Positions 4,173 to 52,772 of a stretch of DNA of 64,000 bases are shown here, piece after piece. The stretch's first letter is position 1. Each line of letters opens with the position of its first letter. Location: assembly GCA_017457225.1 (NCBI GenBank), contig JAFTHW010000007.1:3876-67875 (forward strand), given 5' to 3'. Origin of the DNA: Clostridia bacterium. GTDB taxonomy: Bacteria > Bacillota > Clostridia > Christensenellales > Borkfalkiaceae. The translations under genes and the position numbers were made by a program. A model generated the notes under the pieces. That model was not told where the DNA came from, did no database searches, and worked only from the letters and a program-made list of their open reading frames with translations.

Positions 4173-7100
4173 ATGAGTAAAGCAATTAAAAAACCTTTGC
4201 TGTACTTATTGACGGTGTTGAGCGCGATCGTATTTGCGCTCGGTGTATGGTTCGGTTTGGATACCAACCAAAGCTCCGTCACGGCGAACGCAGCGTCGTA
4301 CACCCGTATTACGGGTACGGCATCGAGCGAGAGTGTAAACGGAAAATTGACGTTAAACTCGTTCCGTACGCAAACGGGCGGATCGGTTCGTCTTGTTGCG
4401 CCTAAGGGGCTCCGTTACGTAACGGAAATTTCCCCTGCGGACGTAGCGAAACTGCCTGAGAACGCAGTATTCGGCACGTTGCTGATGCCCAAGGACAAAT
4501 TGGGCGACAACGAACTGGTGAAAGGACTGGTTGTCAACGGTGCGAAGGCGATGGATATCAAGGCAATGTCGTGGAAAGACACGACGATCGCGACGAGTTC
4601 GGATAAATATACATATACGGCGGTATTGGTAGGGAGCGCGACGGCAGACTTGCCCGTTTCCTATTACAACCGTGACATCGTAGCGCGCGGTTACGTTACG
4701 TACACGGACGCTGCAGGTAAAACGTACACGGTCTACGCGAGCAATTCGCAAACGCGTAATATAGCGTACGTAGCGAATCAAACTTTGATCAACGAAGGTT
4801 TGACGGACGAAGCGGAAACGCTGATGAACACGATCATCAAAACGGCGGTTACGTCGTTTGCAGTCAACGAAGACAAAGTAACGCTCGGTGTGAGCAAAAA
4901 TACGACGTACACGATCACGACGACGAGAACGGGCTTGAACGGTAGATCCGTAGACGGGCTGATTCCCACGTACGTTATCGCGAACACGGACGTAGCGACG
5001 ATCGACCAAAACGGTACGATCACGGCGAAGAGTGCGGGTGTTACGACGCTCACGGCAACGCTCGGCAACTTCACGGATACGGTAGAGATCGTTGTTCAAG
5101 ACACGCTTTGGAACAACGTAGACGAAATCACGCGTATCAATTTTACGGATTATTATATGGGTGCGAACGGAAAGACCGGTGACGGTATTTCTAACATTAG
5201 CGTAGCGAATCTTTCGGAAGCGAACGCAGTCGGCGGCAGAACGGGCGGCAGCTACTATTTCGTAGAGCAGGCGTACCGTGACAATGCAAGTGCGGAGAGC
5301 TGGAGAAAAGCAACGCAGCGTTTCGTATTGAAGCCTTATTACGATAAGACCGTATACGAGGCGTACGCAAACGCGAACCAAAACGCGAGCCTTTCGTTCG
5401 ACGTATACTTAACGGAAGCGTTGGCAGATGGCGAAACGCCGTTGAAAGAAAACTACAGCTATTATTTGAACGGCCAGACTTCGCCTCTGAAAATGAGCAC
5501 GAACAAATGGTACACGTTCCAAATCCCTCTTTCGACGTTGTTGACGAATTGGGATGCAATTAAAACGCCCGGTGAAACGAACGACTCGACGATCGCGTTG
5601 TTCAGCGTAGCGGGCGAATTCAGCTCGGCTACGAGAGAACTCAATTTCTGGATCGGTAACTTCACGTTATCGGCAACGACGGACACGAGCACGGGTCCCG
5701 TAATCGAAACGGTAGAAACGAGCGCAATGCAGCTTAAAGACTTGGCAGGGATGGAAACGTTTGACCTGAGCAGTCTTTTGACCGACGCACAAAAAGAATC
5801 TTTGGAAGCAATCAAAGGCGACTACGAAGTAAGCTATTCGGTATCGTACGCAGGCCAAAACGCAGAGGTCAACGGTAGTGTAATGACGACGGCAGGGGTA
5901 GACGCATTGTCGACAGTAGAGATCTACGTCGGCACGTCGATGTTCTACTCCGCGCAAATGGATTTCTACACCTCGTTCGCCCGTAGCTGGAATGTAATCA
6001 GCGCGAGAATGAACGGCGTTGACTATATGTGTAACGGTCAGATCAAAAATGATTATGGCACCATCGAATATTTGGAAAACTACGCAGGAGTAAATGACGT
6101 ATATAAACTGACTACGACTACGGAGTACGCGCAGTTTAACGGTATCAGTATTATGCCTATGCACGGCGAGTCCTATTATCAAGAAATTTATGATCTGGAT
6201 TCGTCGGCAAAACTCACGTTCCAAATTTATTGGGAAGATTTGAAAGGCGCTGAGTATCTTACGCCTATGAGTACGATTTCTTACGACAGACAGTCCAAAG
6301 GAAACAGAACTGAAAATACGTGGCACACGTACGAGATTCCTCTTTCCACGATTTTGGCAAACTGGGAACTTTTAGGTGTCTCGAATGGGGGTAGCGATGC
6401 GCGAAATACTATTTTCGGTGTTACGAATAGTGTTACGGATAACTACTCGTTCTATTTCGCAAATATGACGCTTGAAACGACGGCAATTCCTGCGCCTGAA
6501 TTAACAGCGATTGAAAAGACGATGCAGCCGGTCGACGTAATCGGTTTGGAAGAATACGGCTACGATTTGAATCGTGTGTTGGAAGATACCGAAAAAGAAG
6601 CTCTCGCGACGGCGAAAACGTACCAAGAGGTATATAACTATCCCGTAACCTATAAACTGTTGCAAAACGGTACGGAAGTCTACTCGGGTGAATCCGTAAT
6701 CAATACGACGGCGTTCAAAGGCGTGTATACGTTGGAAATCTACGTAAGTACTGCATTGTTCTACACCGCTCCCATTTATATTTATGATTCCTCCACCGAG
6801 CCTTACATATGGAACGTAATCAGCGCGGAAAAGAACGGCGCGGCGTTTACCTCTAACGGTACGGTTAACGCCTGGTATGGATCGGTAACGTATCATAATA
6901 CGTATGCAAACAAAGAAAACGTTTACGCGATCACGACAACAGCTAATCCAGACGCGTTCAACGGTATTTCGATCAAGGCAATGTATGAGAAATCCTATTA
7001 CGAAGACATTTTGGCGGATGATGAAAACGCGAAAGTAACGTTCTATCTGTATTGGGAAGATTTGATGGGCGTAAACCAAATTACGGTCAACAAAGAAGTT

Positions 7101-25903: not shown

Positions 25904-26270
25904 CGAAAAATGCGAAACTCCAAGTTGTCGCCAAACGAACTTTATCGCAAGTATAAGCATAGCCATACTATCGAACGGGAGTCGCACTTTTACCAAATGG
26001 ATATCTGTTCGATTAGTATGAAGAATAGGAGCATAATTATCCTATAAAAGAAACTACGTCTATTTGCGATAATATTAAATTCGTTTGGCTTATTTAGTAT
26101 AGCACATATAAAAAGTTTTATCAAGCAATTTTACGAAATTTTACGCAAGGAAGATAAAAATAAAAAATGTAAATGGATGCAAAATTAACGATACCCATAA
26201 TTTAATGCAAACAAAAAGAGCCTACTTTCATGGAAAGCAAAAACTCTCGAGAAGCAGGCTCTTGATCGTA

Positions 26271-26615
26271 TTAAATTTTTTCTTTCAAAGTTTTGCAGCT
26301 TGAAATCAGCATTCGTCTAATTCGACCGCAAAGGTTACGGAACTTTTTGAATGTTTCTTCGTTTATGGCATTTGTGTTAAACAGTAGTTTTAACCACCCT
26401 TCTGTTTCACTACATTCCTTAAGTGCTATTTCAAACTTGGAAACCATATCCAACTTGCTCTGTCCGTAATTGGCTTCACGGATATTGGCATAAACACTGC
26501 TTAAACTTTTACGGATTTGAAATAAAGTATTTGACGAGGCTTTTATCTTTTGACAAAGTAGTTCTATTTCGGTGGCAAGTTGTTCGAAATAAATGAGCAA
26601 GTAATTCTTTGACAT
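26271..26615 (-). CDS. Four-helix-bundle protein (TIGR02436 / 23S rRNA intervening-sequence protein / Avd-like family)
   Basis: The protein is 114 aa. The pattern ...SSVYANIREANYGQSK.D....F.IALKECSETEGWLKLL is typical of this family. RBS AGAGGTG precedes ATG 26615. Confidence 0.7.
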   Translation of the reverse strand: MSKNYLLIYFEQLATEIELLCQKIKASSNTLFQIRKSLSSVYANIREANYGQSKLDMVSKFEIALKECSETEGWLKLLFNTNAINEETFKKFRNLCGRIRRMLISSCKTLKEKI

Positions 26616-26628
26616 ATATAACACCTCT

Positions 26629-27046
26629 TTATGTGTATTATATCACAAAGTTTAACTAAATCAAGGCATTAGCCTTGTATATCATCAATTTCGGAGAAAT
26701 TGCATATCACCAACACAGGGTGTTGTATATCATCATTGCGAAAGAGGATACAGCCTACGGCTGATGATATGCACTTTGGGTGATGATATCCAGACCTACG
26801 GTCTGATGATATACCATCGCTTTCGCAATGGATAAATATGTGTGTATTATATCACAAAGTTTAACTAAATCAAGGCAGTAGCCTTGTATATCATCAATTT
26901 CGGAGAAATTGCATATCACCAACACAGGGTGTTGTATATCATCATTGCGAAAGAGGATACAGCCTACGGCTGATAATATGCACTTTGGGTGATGATATCC
27001 AGACCTGCGGTCCGATGATATACCATCGCTTTCGCAATGGATAAAA
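26629..27046 (-). repeat. Tandem direct duplication, 2 x 209 bp (4 substitutions). Each unit holds six hairpin-plus-9-mer modules and a promoter
   Basis: Copy 1 is 26629-26837 and copy 2 is 26838-27046. The 9-mers are ATATCATCA x3 then TGATGATAT x3 (plus strand). Minus-strand promoters TTGATT-16-TGaTATAAT lie at 26637-26664 and 26846-26873. Confidence 0.9.
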
Positions 27047-27074
27047 AAAGTCGTATCAACTGATACGACTTTTT
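27044..27074. terminator. Terminator directly after tRNA-Ser (usable in both directions)
   Basis: An 8-bp stem GTCGTATC / GATACGAC is flanked by A6 and T5 runs. Confidence 0.7.
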
Positions 27075-27164
27075 TGGCGCAGAGAACAGGATTTGAACCT
27101 GCGGTGAGCTTCCACCCACACACGATTTCCAATCGTGCTCCTTAAACCACTCAGACATCTCTGC
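27075..27164 (-). tRNA. tRNA-Ser (anticodon GGA), class II with a long variable arm and encoded CCA
   Basis: I folded it manually. The acceptor is GCAGAGA/TCTCTGC, the anticodon arm CACGA-TTGGAAA-TCGTG, the T arm GCAGG-TTCAAAT-CCTGT, and the 3' end is GCCA. Confidence 0.85.
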
Positions 27165-27266
27165 AAATATAAGCGTTATCGCGCAACGCTTATTTATATT
27201 ACTGTATTTTTTGAAAAAAGGCAAGCGTTTTTAAGCGGACTTTTATAAAATTCTCAAAAAAACTTC

Positions 27267-28997
27267 TCAATTTTGCGTTTTGTAACAATCGCACGCCTTG
27301 CCGCTTTTCAAAAATCCCGTATCCGAGCACTTTTTACACGTAAATTGCGGCGTTAAATCTTCTTCCGTGATCCCGATCCGAGTTAAAATCTCTTTCCGCT
27401 CGGCAATCAACGCCGTTTTCGTTTGTTGTAAAGAGGGGAGTTTATCCGGCTCGAACACTTCCGCTTTCGCAAGGGAAATTTCCATTTTGGAAAGTTCCGT
27501 TTCCAGCTGTTTGAAACGTTTGTCCTTGTTGGCTTTTTCCAAATTCCGATCCGCAACGGTTTGCGCTTTTTCCCGAAGAAGCGCGTAGTATCTTTCCCGA
27601 TCGGATTTAGCATTTACCGCTTCGATTGCGGGATTGACATAGCCCGTTTTCGGTGTAGAAATTCCTATTGTCGGCGCGCTTGGAATCTCGTTCAACGCGT
27701 ACACGCCCCCCCTCTTCCAATCGGACAGGATCTTATTCATATAGGGGATAGGGCTTGCGGAAGCGGCGCTTCTCTTCGCAGCTTCAAGGATCATTTCGTT
27801 GCTAAATTTCCAATCCCTCCAGGTCTGTACCATAGAAAGATTGGTTGCGTTTTTACGGAGCGTACCGCAAATTTTTTCGATCTCGTTAAACAGCTTGAGT
27901 TCGTCGTTTTTACCTTTCAAGAATTCTTTGACTCCCTCTTTAGAAACGATGCCCTCGGCGAACAGTTTTCCGACCAATTCGTCCAAAGCGTTGAAATCGC
28001 TCCGTCCCGATTTCAGGCAGAACAACGCCATATCGAGAAGGGAGGAGTCCTCAAATCCGTACGTGTACCATTTTTCGGTATATTCGTCAATGAACGTCGC
28101 GGTATTGTTGACTTTGACCCCCAACTTTCTTGCGATCCGCAAGGTAAGCGTGCCGAGCAGTTCTCGTTCGGTAAGATAATTTTCGATGCCGCGGAGTTCG
28201 GTTTTTCCCTTTTGAGCCAACTCTTCCAAGGACAGATCAAGGCTTGCCATCGTACCGCGTTTCATACGCTTTGCGGCGGCGAGTACGCCGTCCTTGCGGA
28301 AACCCAGCTCCTCCGTCCATTTTTTATACAGCGCGTAATCCCCGTCCTCGGGCGCGCGCTGATAGAGCGCCATTGCATTGAAAACAGCGAGCAGATCTTT
28401 TTCGTGCGCGTTGTAGTTCGACAGCGCTTTTTCCACCTGTTCGTAAGTGGAGCAACCGTTTTGAATGAGTTTTTTCGCCTTGTTAAAGATATACGAGGGA
28501 GAAACGGATTCACCCTGTTTATTGATGCAATATTCAGCGACGAGCAAAAGCGCCTGCGGGCGAATATCGTTTTCTTCGAGGAAGTGCATAAATTTGAGGT
28601 AATCTCCCGAGGAAACGAATTTTCCGACGCGTTGCATTTTACGTTGAAGCTCTTTATTGAAATCGGAGTACTGTTCATAGCGTACGCGTTTGGGTTTTCC
28701 GACCGAAGTTTTGACAGGCAAATACTGTACGGCGAACGGCTCTTTGGAGAGGATTTGAACAAGGTCGTAATCTTCCCAAAGGGCAAATGCCTGCGCGATC
28801 TCTTCTTCGGTAGATTGCAGGACTTCCGCCATAGAACGAATGGTAAAATCGTTACAATTTCCGCAAAGGTACAAACCGTAAAGATATACTTTTACGGCGA
28901 ACGGATCCGCTTCGGGCAAATATTTGGTAATGAACTTATTTTCGACGACGGTATAGGAGTTCCCGTCGCTGTCCTTTACAAAAGAACAAAAAGCCAT
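27267..28997 (-). CDS. DnaD-domain replication initiation/membrane attachment protein (Firmicutes DnaB/DnaD family) with a C-terminal coiled coil and Cys knuckle
   Basis: A DnaD-like C-terminal motif IPYMNKILSDWKRGGV is present, plus a second DnaD-like repeat upstream. The C-terminus is FTCKKCSDTGFLKSGKACDCYK. The start is ATG 28997 or 29003. Confidence 0.65.
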   Translation of the reverse strand: MAFCSFVKDSDGNSYTVVENKFITKYLPEADPFAVKVYLYGLYLCGNCNDFTIRSMAEVLQSTEEEIAQAFALWEDYDLVQILSKEPFAVQYLPVKTSVGKPKRVRYEQYSDFNKELQRKMQRVGKFVSSGDYLKFMHFLEENDIRPQALLLVAEYCINKQGESVSPSYIFNKAKKLIQNGCSTYEQVEKALSNYNAHEKDLLAVFNAMALYQRAPEDGDYALYKKWTEELGFRKDGVLAAAKRMKRGTMASLDLSLEELAQKGKTELRGIENYLTERELLGTLTLRIARKLGVKVNNTATFIDEYTEKWYTYGFEDSSLLDMALFCLKSGRSDFNALDELVGKLFAEGIVSKEGVKEFLKGKNDELKLFNEIEKICGTLRKNATNLSMVQTWRDWKFSNEMILEAAKRSAASASPIPYMNKILSDWKRGGVYALNEIPSAPTIGISTPKTGYVNPAIEAVNAKSDRERYYALLREKAQTVADRNLEKANKDKRFKQLETELSKMEISLAKAEVFEPDKLPSLQQTKTALIAERKEILTRIGITEEDLTPQFTCKKCSDTGFLKSGKACDCYKTQN

Positions 28998-45801: not shown

Positions 45802-45884
45802 GCGGATGTGGCGAATCTGGCAGACGCGCAGGTTTCAGGTTCCTGTGGGAGACCATATGGGTTCGAGTCCCTTCATCCGCACCA
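45802..45884 (+). tRNA. tRNA-Leu (anticodon CAG), class II with encoded CCA
   Basis: I folded it manually. The acceptor is GCGGATG/CATCCGC, the anticodon arm CAGGT-TTCAGGT-TCCTG, the variable arm TGG-GAGA-CCA, and the T loop TTCGAGT. Two U-U mismatches (31-39, 50-64) lower confidence slightly. Confidence 0.8.
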
Positions 45885-45891
45885 ACAAGAT

Positions 45892-46273
45892 GCACCCTTT
45901 GGGGTGCATTTTTCGTTGGTGCGGATGAAGGGAAGAACGAAGAAGCCATCGGGTTCGCGCGAGCCGTTGAAGACGGCGAAGCCCTGCCGAGGCTCCGCAA
46001 AGCGGAAACGGCGGATACCCTTCATCGCGGTATAATATAAATGCGAACGCACCCTTTGGGGTGCGTTTTTGCGTGGTGCGGATGAAGGGAAGAACGAAGA
46101 AACCATCGGGTTCGCGCGAGCTGTTGAAGACGGCGAAGCCCTGCCGAGGCTCCGCAAAGCGGAAACGGCAGATACCCTTCATCGCGGTATAATATAAATG
46201 CAAACGCACCCTTTGGGGTGCGTTTTTGCTTGGTGCGGATGAAGGGAAGAACGAAGAAGCCATTGGGTTCGGA
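45892..46273 (+). repeat. Tandem repeat, 157-bp unit x 2.4. Each unit starts with a terminator hairpin and contains a 17-nt antisense copy of the tRNA-Leu 3' end
   Basis: Units begin at 45892, 46049 and 46206 (GCACCCTTTGGGGTGC plus a T-run). TGGTGCGGATGAAGGGA occurs at 45917-45933, 46074-46090 and 46231-46247. Confidence 0.9.
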
Positions 46274-52569: not shown

Positions 52570-52772
52570 AATATTCTTTGGGGCGAGGCGAAAATCCTCA
52601 CCGGCAGTAGAGTCTGCGAAGAACGGGCGCAAACACGCTCGTTCCCGAATCGGTGGAATTCCGATACCGACGGTATAGTCCGGATGGAAAAAAGAATGAA
52701 AAAACGCGGCGATAGGCCGCGCAAGTTTCGTATGTTTTTCGTCCGCCTCGATCTTTCGAGGCGGTTTTGTTA
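52570..52772 (+). promoter_or_regulatory. FMN riboswitch (RFN element) with a terminator expression platform
   Basis: The RFN core strings are GGGGCGAGGCGAAAATCCTCACCGGCAGT ... CGGTGGAATTCCGATACCGACGGTATAGTCCGGATGGAAAAAAGAAT. The terminator CCGCCTCG/CGAGGCGG plus TTTTGTT lies at 52743-52770. A riboflavin transporter gene follows. Confidence 0.9.

Follow-up and report, generated by a model that had tools for sequence, protein, structure and literature searches.

A 64,000-nt stretch of DNA from a Clostridia bacterium (contig JAFTHW010000007.1 of assembly GCA_017457225.1; hereafter the window) contains, between a tRNA-Ser(GGA) gene and a gene for a four-helix-bundle (4HB) protein, a block of two tandem 209-bp units that is a copy-pair of a widespread multi-copy hairpin-array repeat of uncultured gut and rumen Clostridia. 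The repeat is a real, conserved and structured nucleic-acid element, with more than 200 copies recovered over genome and metagenome scans and with hairpins that change in sequence while staying paired. It is built of two arms of three modules each, ATATCATCA plus a hairpin in the A arm and TGATGATAT plus a hairpin in the B arm, and these arms are mirror images of each other, with GNA or GNRA loops on whichever strand the linker reads ATATCAT. On sequence grounds, we give about an even chance to the reading that this is a multi-copy repeat of Gut-1-like and REPIN/BIME-like character acting as single-stranded structured DNA behind stable-RNA genes, in which case the duplication in the window would be an ordinary copy-number change.

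A duplicated copy of a repeat found behind tRNA and tmRNA genes

Tandem Repeats Finder delimited the block as a tandem repeat of period 209 with 2.0 copies and 98% matches (26632–27045), and direct comparison of the copies identified exactly four differences within the unit (26669 T/G, 26766 G/A, 26798 A/G and 26804 T/C) and three further differences at the unit junction (26837, 26839 and 26840). Read on the minus strand, each unit runs from ATCC through a first hairpin with a GNRA loop (hp0, CCATTGC-GAAA-GCGATGG), three (T)ATATCATCA modules with their hairpins, a centre (TATCCTCTTTCGCAA) and the B modules (TGATGATAT, TGGTGATAT and TGATGATAT, each with a hairpin) to GATT and a promoter, while the locus as a whole is ordered tRNA-Ser(GGA), terminator, copy 2, copy 1, a good sigma-70 promoter (also present in copy 2), ribosome-binding site and 4HB gene (Table 1). 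The 9-mer, at up to one mismatch, occurs 12 times in the repeat compared with 8 times in the remaining 63.6 kb of the window. The duplication with its GNRA hairpin, six modules and promoter had been described in an initial annotation of this DNA and is borne out by both analyses. The accompanying statement that all four substitutions preserve pairing on the minus strand stands for the two that fall in hairpin loops and for another that turns A-T into G·T within a supported stem, but the fourth, a C to T change in ATATCATCA, keeps its pair only under a helix between 9-mers that is without comparative support.

Family members were collected by a pattern-based scan of one genome per species (at least 119 stretches with at least 123 elements; the family counts given here rest on the listed elements) and by a metagenome scan with a different anchor, the first hairpin and first 9-mer only (at least 119 stretches). 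L-numbers are labels of the retrieved stretches. Homologues proved abundant in independent assemblies and lie chiefly behind tRNA or tmRNA genes. The listed genome matches are all metagenome-assembled genomes (MAGs) of gut, rumen or caecum Clostridia, labelled Eubacteriales, Christensenellaceae, Oscillospiraceae, Acutalibacteraceae or Ruminococcus, often with several copies per MAG (on at least four contigs of JAFTJE01 and at least three of JAFVWS01) and often at contig ends, with some contigs ending inside the element (L154, L164, L159/L166). Those metagenome record names shown that state a source all state human gut. The number of modules varies across the family, from two to five of one type and from two to four of the other. 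By blastn, the block had no match in 50,697 phage or 72,556 plasmid records; 2.9 million viral contigs yielded two matches, of which the one examined (L105) is host flank, and a scan of viral contigs for three direct ATATCATCA returned only low-complexity ATC-repeat matches and is uninformative.

That the block is an assembly artefact or a chance repeat has next to no probability. The assembly was made from short reads with MEGAHIT, and the only other copy of the contig (L001, exact over 6.3 kb) derives from the same assembly, leaving the duplication without an independent one. However, the two copies differ at four internal positions, the longest run identical between them (96 bp) is shorter than the assembler's k of 141, so that the duplication is resolvable with short reads, more than 200 homologous elements are present in independent assemblies, and second copies, tandem or partial, are seen elsewhere in the family (L245 and L123, the latter with a decayed partial second tandem unit in its cassette of element and 4HB gene).

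Among the listed elements away from contig edges, 64 of 106 have a tRNA gene on the same strand less than 400 nt upstream, directly adjacent in 50 of the 64, and the upstream tRNAs of listed elements represent at least 14 isoacceptor families; a tmRNA gene takes this place in L141, L145, L185 and L248, and elsewhere a bare tRNA 3′ fragment does so. The junction has the form 'NCC / A-run, hairpin, T-run / ATCC' in 74 of 93 parsed left junctions of listed genome elements and in 56 of 76 in the metagenome set. Family members keep one orientation relative to the upstream tRNA or tmRNA gene, and the downstream genes, the 4HB gene apart, are unrelated to one another (co-directional in 67 of 100 cases, convergent in 33). 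The initial annotation had the element transcribed together with tRNA-Ser, a proposal that finds no support, since with the strong bidirectional terminator between them co-transcription would need read-through.

Table 1 The duplicated block and its immediate surroundings, with positions given in the window.
Feature	Position	Strand	Basis
tRNA-Ser(GGA) trailed by the element	27075..27164	-	ARAGORN; Rfam tRNA, 53.7 bits
Bidirectional intrinsic terminator (A-run, perfect 15-bp hairpin, T-run) between tRNA and element	27044..27075	.	Inverted repeat, 15 nt, 100% complementary
Element core copy 2 (tRNA side): ATCC, hp0, three ATATCATCA modules, centre, three TGATGATAT modules, GATT	26868..27042	-	Aligned with 48 homologues, alignment A1
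Upstream duplicated copy of the 4HB promoter, TTGATT-16-TATAAT with TG	26846..26873	-	Promoter scan, 10/12
Element core copy 1 (gene side)	26659..26833	-	Sequence, copy comparison, alignment A1
hp0 of copy 1, CCATTGC-GAAA-GCGATGG; 5′ arm and loop complementary to centre	26814..26831	-	Inverted repeats
A arm of copy 1	26762..26812	-	ATATCATCA at 26812-26804, 26789-26781 and 26770-26762, hairpins between
Centre of copy 1, (TATCC)TCTTTCGCAA(TG), partner of hp0 5′ arm and loop	26734..26746	-	Inverted repeats; homologue complement
B arm of copy 1	26679..26735	-	TGATGATAT at 26735-26727, TGGTGATAT at 26712-26704, TGATGATAT at 26687-26679, hairpins between
Proximal 4HB promoter, TTGATT-16-TGaTATAAT	26637..26664	-	Promoter scan, 10/12 with extended TG
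4HB gene (TIGR02436/PF05635), 114 aa, ATG at 26615	26271..26615	-	Pfam, 65.7 bits; NCBIfam TIGR02436, 72.6 bits

The genes flanking the block encode a DnaD-domain protein, tRNA-Ser and a weakly acyltransferase-like protein (Pfam match below cut-off). Several other features of tRNA 3′ flanks were seen in the retrieved stretches and in the window. About one third of family members (e.g. L141, L145, L168, L193, L214) have a conserved tail in the first ~90 nt after GATT, comprising a T-arm-like GAGTTCAARTCC in a short stem, AAAATATCTTTTTT, an acceptor-like ..CCCTTCACA, an A-run and a second terminator; the tail in L156 and L163 ends in CCGCCCCTGCCA, resembling the tRNA-Trp 3′ end, and that in L194 is an intact-looking tRNA 3′ part. 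The tail could be a displaced tRNA 3′ end or a component of the unit. Inserts ending in a 12–51-nt direct duplicate of the tRNA 3′ end lie between tRNA and array in L139, L157, L169, L214, L247 and L168, and the tRNA-Ser of L261 is followed by an insert of the same kind, again ending in a tRNA 3′-end duplicate. An insert of this kind is also seen in the window, where a second tandem repeat (45892–46271, 157 bp × 2.4) directly follows the other tRNA gene, tRNA-Leu(CAG) (45802–45884, +). In its unit, a terminator hairpin precedes TGGTGCGGATGAAGGGA, which repeats the final 17 nt of the tRNA exactly but inverted; the unit also has a T-arm-like stretch in degenerate form, CCCTTCATC as a partial direct copy, and a TATAAT box. 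The flavin mononucleotide (FMN) riboswitch at 52570–52700 (+; 98.8 bits) is ordinary and unrelated to the element.

Covariation and mirror symmetry of the arms

Across the family the linkers are conserved and each hairpin position is occupied by 11–24 stem types, the 362 distinct hairpin segments containing 2087 Watson–Crick, 25 G·T and 17 A·C pairs. RNAalifold analysis of a 50-sequence alignment (A1) found changes on both sides at 15 pairs, and pair counting on the same alignment gave 200 doubly changed cells, with 98.4% of cells paired; the observed values were reached in 0 of 500 shuffles, and the paired fraction fell to 20–54% in slid controls. By both measures, compensatory changes in the hairpins are abundant. 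In addition, the 5′ arm and loop of hp0 have an exact complement of at least 10 nt in the centre in 48 of 54 elements, and this pair exists in at least five covarying versions (e.g. CATTGCGAAAG, CAAGCCGCAGG and CAAGTCGCAGA); the complement can be read either as an alternative helix that closes off the A arm or as an inverted repeat of 11 bp.

The further proposal that the two sets of 9-mers pair with each other was not upheld. It was examined in a pattern-biased set and in the metagenome set, chosen by the first hairpin and first 9-mer alone. Pair counting on the pattern-selected alignment found no compensated change in 9-mer:9-mer helices, 22 of 54 elements carry the frequent variant ATCTCATCA opposite a nested partner that it mismatches, and, in the metagenome set, ATCTCATC (42 of 76) and the variant that should pair with it, GATGAGAT (7 of 76), showed no co-occurrence (Fisher p = 0.69). 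Motifs that are complementary between the arms yet lack compensation fit an inverted recognition motif rather than a helix.

Recognition of such a motif on duplex DNA, in an array of the operator, iteron or centromere kind where a protein, possibly the 4HB protein, would occupy six TGATGATAT sites and control the promoter or local chromosome structure, is in our view improbable. The 9-mers are highly conserved, three inverted and three direct, without sign of a constraint to pair with one another, the B-arm sites are fairly regularly spaced (23–25 bp) and the −35 box of the 4HB gene overlaps the last module, all of which would suit a duplex array. Binding to duplex DNA does not, however, need spacers that are short perfect palindromes changing in sequence while staying paired, and the spacing in the A arm varies from 19 to 27 bp and more. 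In addition, 85% of listed copies have no 4HB gene and are followed by unrelated genes, and no rep or par gene lies nearby; the neighbours are housekeeping genes of the chromosome, among them the DnaD-domain gene, a conserved orthologue without the element in relatives. The iteron or centromere array that the initial annotation had offered as its alternative thus retains the inverted 3+3 arrangement of motifs in its favour, but leaves the covarying hairpins unexplained.

The two arms differ in their wobble pairs and loops when counted family-wide on the tRNA-sense strand. A-arm stems have 791 Watson–Crick, 13 G·T and 0 A·C pairs and B-arm stems 1067, 9 and 12, respectively (Fisher p = 6e-4 for the difference in wobble counts). 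Triloops of the A arm are c(GNA)g in 52 cases and c(TNC)g in 0, those of the B arm c(GNA)g in 1 and c(TNC)g in 53, and TYNC loops, which are GNRA on the opposite strand, number 0 in the A arm and 22 in the B arm. The hp0 stems have 5 G·T versus 2 A·C pairs, and the neighbouring terminators, which served as an RNA control and have mostly UUCG loops, 8 versus 2. The c(GNA)g triloop is a classic very stable DNA mini-hairpin. Together, the complementary motifs without covariation, the mirrored loops and the opposite polarity of Gut-1 (see below) argue that the motif is recognised on DNA both ways round and not through pairing between the arms. Folding of the unit as RNA gave −62 and −59.4 kcal/mol for the two strands, and the minus strand folded as DNA had a z-score of −6.8.

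A structured non-coding RNA in the tRNA sense, close to what the initial annotation had proposed, is less probable but to be taken seriously as an alternative. It would arise by read-through of the terminator or, in the window, as a 5′ leader of the 4HB gene from the duplicated promoter, and in it the helix between the hp0 5′ arm and the centre would enclose three hairpins while conserved single-stranded UAUAUCAU linkers would bind protein or RNA, in the manner of sponge or processing-platform RNAs, of which 3′ETS-leuZ (see below) is an example. Constant co-orientation with highly transcribed tRNA and tmRNA genes, the GNRA loop of hp0 and the covarying alternative hp0–centre pairing would all be accounted for, and the tRNA-sense ratios of G·T to A·C in the A arm (13:0) and hp0 (5:2) are comparable to that of the terminators (8:2). 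The RNA fold is more stable than expected (z about −4.9), many copies are followed by the conserved tail and a second terminator, and the relative Gut-1 was classed as an RNA (PMC2864571). Yet the element lies behind an efficient-looking terminator without a promoter of its own, its opposite strand folds equally well, its B-arm stems are without sense-strand bias (9:12) and have loops that are the complement of GNA, and G·U makes up only 1.2% of pairs, which is atypically low. Gut-1-type relatives, moreover, bear their heptamer on the opposite strand relative to the tRNA, and the distribution of the element is patchy and multi-copy. Of the conserved structured minus-strand RNA first proposed, the compensating hairpins and the A-arm bias remain, whereas the B arm with its complementary loops speaks against it.

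A number of described systems were tried and rejected. The differences between the copies (T/G, G/A, A/G, T/C) are not adenine-specific, as would befit the repeat pair of a diversity-generating retroelement, and the flanking genes include no reverse transcriptase gene; a box C/D or k-turn reading of UGAUGA finds no D-box partner, the motif pairing perfectly with its complement; and there is no 7-1-7 arrangement of a Fur-type box. Type III antitoxin repeats were set aside on account of the promoter between repeats and gene and the non-identity of the repeats, and a group IIC intron remnant on account of the absence of any Rfam intron match. A DnaA-box cluster was dropped after comparison by eye with what we take to be the consensus, which gave 6/9 matches with key positions missing.

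The attached 4HB gene and signs of mobility

The 4HB protein (match to PDB 2RLD, E = 3e-15) belongs to PF05635/TIGR02436, the '23S rRNA intervening-sequence protein' family, of which the nucleic-acid-binding Avd of diversity-generating retroelements is also a member; PADLOC returned nothing credible for it or for the small neighbouring proteins. All-against-all clustering of open reading frames within 3.5 kb of 123 listed elements identified it as the only recurrent neighbouring gene family. It lies downstream of 15 of 101 listed elements, a proportion at odds with the idea that the array is a dedicated leader of TIGR02436 genes. The cassettes of element and 4HB gene are similar to one another from TTTATCC up to, but not beyond, the 4HB stop codon, similarity among elements as such is just as sharply bounded by TTTATCC and GATT, and 4HB homologues with context stand in unrelated neighbourhoods, with the same hairpin architecture upstream and, farther upstream, a different tRNA and terminator. 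The 4HB gene is optional cargo of the cassette. In the single-copy layout, its promoter lies 3′ of the element and before the gene, and the last hairpin, with its end, and the element's terminal ATT together make up the −35 box (TTGATT) of the proximal promoter in the window; the same promoter is kept in the cassettes of L128, L185, L220 and L232. The duplicated upstream promoter, if active, would transcribe copy 1 as a leader of ~230 nt.

In protein searches whose matches were not paired by genome, the best non-self matches of the 4HB protein ran into the thousands at 85–96% identity, mostly on contigs shorter than 2 kb, whereas for the DnaD-domain protein encoded next to it (606 aa) the best non-self identity was ~70%. 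The contrast suggests a cassette that is present in many copies, spread horizontally, or both. In L123 (5296–5482), 2.3 kb away from the cassette, there is a second element in the opposite orientation, with no 4HB gene called for it.

Identical elements were found behind different tRNAs with different terminators in one MAG (L139 and L199). In L248 (reverse strand, 4380–5420), a tmRNA, terminator, full element, promoter and unrelated small gene are followed by a second terminator and a half-element, which consists of the A arm only, breaks off directly after TGTAT and continues into a tmRNA 3′ fragment (..CCCACCA) and a third terminator; recombination or insertion at the element's centre may have produced this joint. 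Looked at for the terminal inverted repeats of a miniature transposon (MITE), both ends of the element, read inward, present A(T/A)TC, a hairpin and TATATCATCA, an architecture with variable hairpins and not a fixed sequence. The nearest sampled relatives, in which DnaD is ~70% identical, keep the SbcC-SbcD-DnaD-tRNA-Ser(GGA) synteny but have neither the element nor the 4HB gene, and their tRNA-Ser locus holds instead either an island with integrase and REP_ORF2-G2P genes or a small insert ending in a tRNA 3′-end duplicate. At this distance the relatives do not allow the exact ends of the element to be defined from the orthologous locus. One of these loci (L257:5505–8235, also L260), orthologous to window ~26000–27270, has a small integrated element after tRNA-Ser(GGA) that encodes a tyrosine integrase, a REP_ORF2-G2P rolling-circle replication protein, two small open reading frames and a helix-turn-helix protein.

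Should the array be a miniature attP-like remnant of an integrative element, lacking cargo and trapped at tRNA genes, the 3+3 inverted 9-mers would be arm-type recombinase or excisionase sites flanking a tRNA 3′-end core. This would accord with the stacking of small inserts at tRNA 3′ ends, each followed by a 12–51-nt direct duplicate of the tRNA 3′ end, with the integrase and REP_ORF2-G2P genes in the orthologous tRNA-Ser island of relatives, with the L248 half-element joined to a tmRNA 3′ fragment, and with the many copies followed by a T-arm-like tail ending in ..CA plus a terminator. We nevertheless regard it as very unlikely. At least 14 tRNA isoacceptor families and tmRNA are occupied, and we know of no single site-specific integrase that uses so many different tRNA families; no integrase gene is adjacent in the sampled loci, arm-type sites leave the covarying hairpins unexplained, and the viral contigs gave just the two matches and the phage and plasmid records none.

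The block is two tandem copies of a ~175-bp two-armed hairpin array plus the promoter of the attached 4HB gene. In the reading that we favour, that of a repeat acting as single-stranded structured DNA, a non-autonomous element of this kind would spread, or be homogenised, among terminator-proximal sites behind stable-RNA genes. Each arm would be read on its own strand as single-stranded DNA, presenting ATATCAT beside a very stable c(GNA)g mini-hairpin, by a trans-acting protein for which the 4HB protein, the product of the only recurrent neighbouring gene, would be the obvious candidate partner. Slippage or unequal exchange would probably account for the 209-bp duplication, with the shared TTTATCC junction as its site, and a second promoter would incidentally have been set upstream of one full element. 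Several points count against this reading. The B-arm wobbles are symmetric (9 G·T to 12 A·C), whereas A·C should be in excess under a strict mirror model, and both the 13:0 excess of G·T in the A arm and the strict co-orientation with tRNA genes are equally expected of a read-through RNA. No transposase, integrase or HUH gene recurs beside the element at ~120 listed loci (a serine recombinase gene is present in 4 listed loci, on either side of the element), and among the sampled genomes there was no clean target-site duplication and no empty/filled pair within one species. Gut-1 itself was judged to be an RNA by Weinberg et al., on covariation evidence (PMC2864571).

The array might also be the cis-acting partner of the PF05635/TIGR02436 protein in a previously unrecognised small element that colonises the 3′ ends of stable-RNA genes, which we think unlikely. 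Cassettes of element and 4HB gene would then be 'autonomous' and element-only copies 'non-autonomous', the targets would be tRNA and tmRNA trailers here and 23S rRNA helices in classical intervening sequences, and the mechanism would depend on single strands and structure without a conventional transposase. The 4HB gene as sole recurrent neighbour, the sharp limits of the cassette and the contrast between 85–96% (4HB) and ~70% (DnaD) identity are compatible with such a partnership.

Relation to Gut-1 and other described repeats

At gathering thresholds, Rfam returned only tRNAs and the FMN riboswitch for the window, and no family detects the element. Among permissive matches, Gut-1 (RF01706) was the only one to recur and to fit the architecture, the others being scattered, weak and from unrelated families. 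The Gut-1 model matched over its full length on the strand antisense to the A arm, with 19 bits at window 26741–26817 (+) and 25.6 bits in L141. As these scores lie below the gathering score of 50 bits, the element is not a member by Rfam's criterion. Gut-1 consists of three variable hairpins separated by an RUGAAAU heptamer and was reported only from human-gut metagenomes of uncultivated bacteria, with no function proposed (Weinberg et al. 2010, PMC2864571); in the literature searched, it is mentioned only in this discovery paper.

Likeness between the two extends to three compensating hairpins per arm, separated here by (T)GATGATAT or GGTGATAT, to the GUGAUAU linker of several Gut-1 seeds, which equals the element's TGGTGATAT module, and to confinement to gut-type sources and uncultivated bacteria (for the element, among the listed matches). 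The flanks of Gut-1 seeds add to this a position directly behind a terminator, which is that of tRNA-Arg in one seed and elsewhere that of a gene. They also show that a helix UAUAUUCGCC / GGCGAAUAUA closes off the first arm, that an AUAUCAC arm follows in inverted orientation, and that there are tandem arrays repeating every 240 nt. Seed BAAZ01025322 is ordered tRNA, terminator, GUGAUAU arm and AUAUCAC arm, and the element tRNA, terminator, ATATCATCA arm and TGATGATAT arm. The element differs in having a 9-mer linker (ATATCATCA / TGATGATAT), in its tRNA-side arm, which on the tRNA-sense strand reads ATATCA compared with TGATAT in Gut-1 seeds, and in its hairpin bounds (CA...TG compared with TG...CA in Gut-1); the published model, for its part, describes one arm, and its source is silent on tRNA association, mirror symmetry and the 4HB gene. 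Judged by these motifs, the element is a divergent relative of Gut-1 and not a member of it. The initial view that the block matched no described element was accordingly right for Rfam families at gathering score, but missed this relationship. A separate locus at L128:3856–3924 (+), ~0.9 kb downstream of a cassette of element and 4HB gene, has a near-threshold Gut-1 match (43.6 bits), in which four ATGAAAT/GTGAAAT linkers set apart three hairpins; it immediately follows a terminator hairpin, and the genes on either side of it converge.

The Rfam model of Gut-1, an orphan since 2010, covers only part of a far larger and more varied family of Gut-1-like arrays. This family is now seen as two-armed, mirror-symmetric, located at tRNA and tmRNA 3′ ends, multi-copy and breaking metagenome assemblies, and it is repeatedly linked to the 4HB protein family. 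The element bears on the question of why tRNA 3′ flanks in abundant uncultured gut Clostridia hold many small inserts and, for annotation practice, such elements are not to be taken for gene-specific riboregulators.

Pneumococcal BOX elements are modular, with boxA, a variable boxB and boxC. The element shares with them a variable number of internal modules, an intergenic location, a stable predicted fold and the ability to carry or affect the promoters of neighbours, but has no sequence similarity to them and occurs in other hosts, and BOX is not tied to tRNA genes. The 3′ external transcribed spacer of Escherichia coli leuZ (3′ETS-leuZ) is a tRNA 3′ trailer RNA that precedes the terminator and is unique in its genome. 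If the element did act as RNA, it would likewise be a functional RNA from just 3′ of a tRNA gene, but one that lies after the terminator and is multi-copy.

REP, BIME and REPIN sequences are short multi-copy intergenic repeats of inverted palindromic units near terminators, near-identical within a genome and differing between genomes, and they are considered to be handled, together with RAYT transposases, in the form of single-stranded DNA hairpins next to which a conserved motif is single-stranded. The element, too, occurs between genes in many nearly identical copies per genome. The palindrome sequence is conserved in REPs, whereas the element has conserved linkers and variable palindromes (the 11–24 stem types per position) and lacks a conserved palindrome with a 5′ GTAG-type tetranucleotide; no Y1/HUH (RAYT) gene lies beside the listed copies, in a search limited to their flanks and not extended to whole genomes. 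The oriented association with tRNA and tmRNA 3′ ends is a feature of the element and no property of REPs. Minus the RAYT gene and conserved palindrome that define those repeats, the element functionally most resembles repeats of the REPIN/BIME type.

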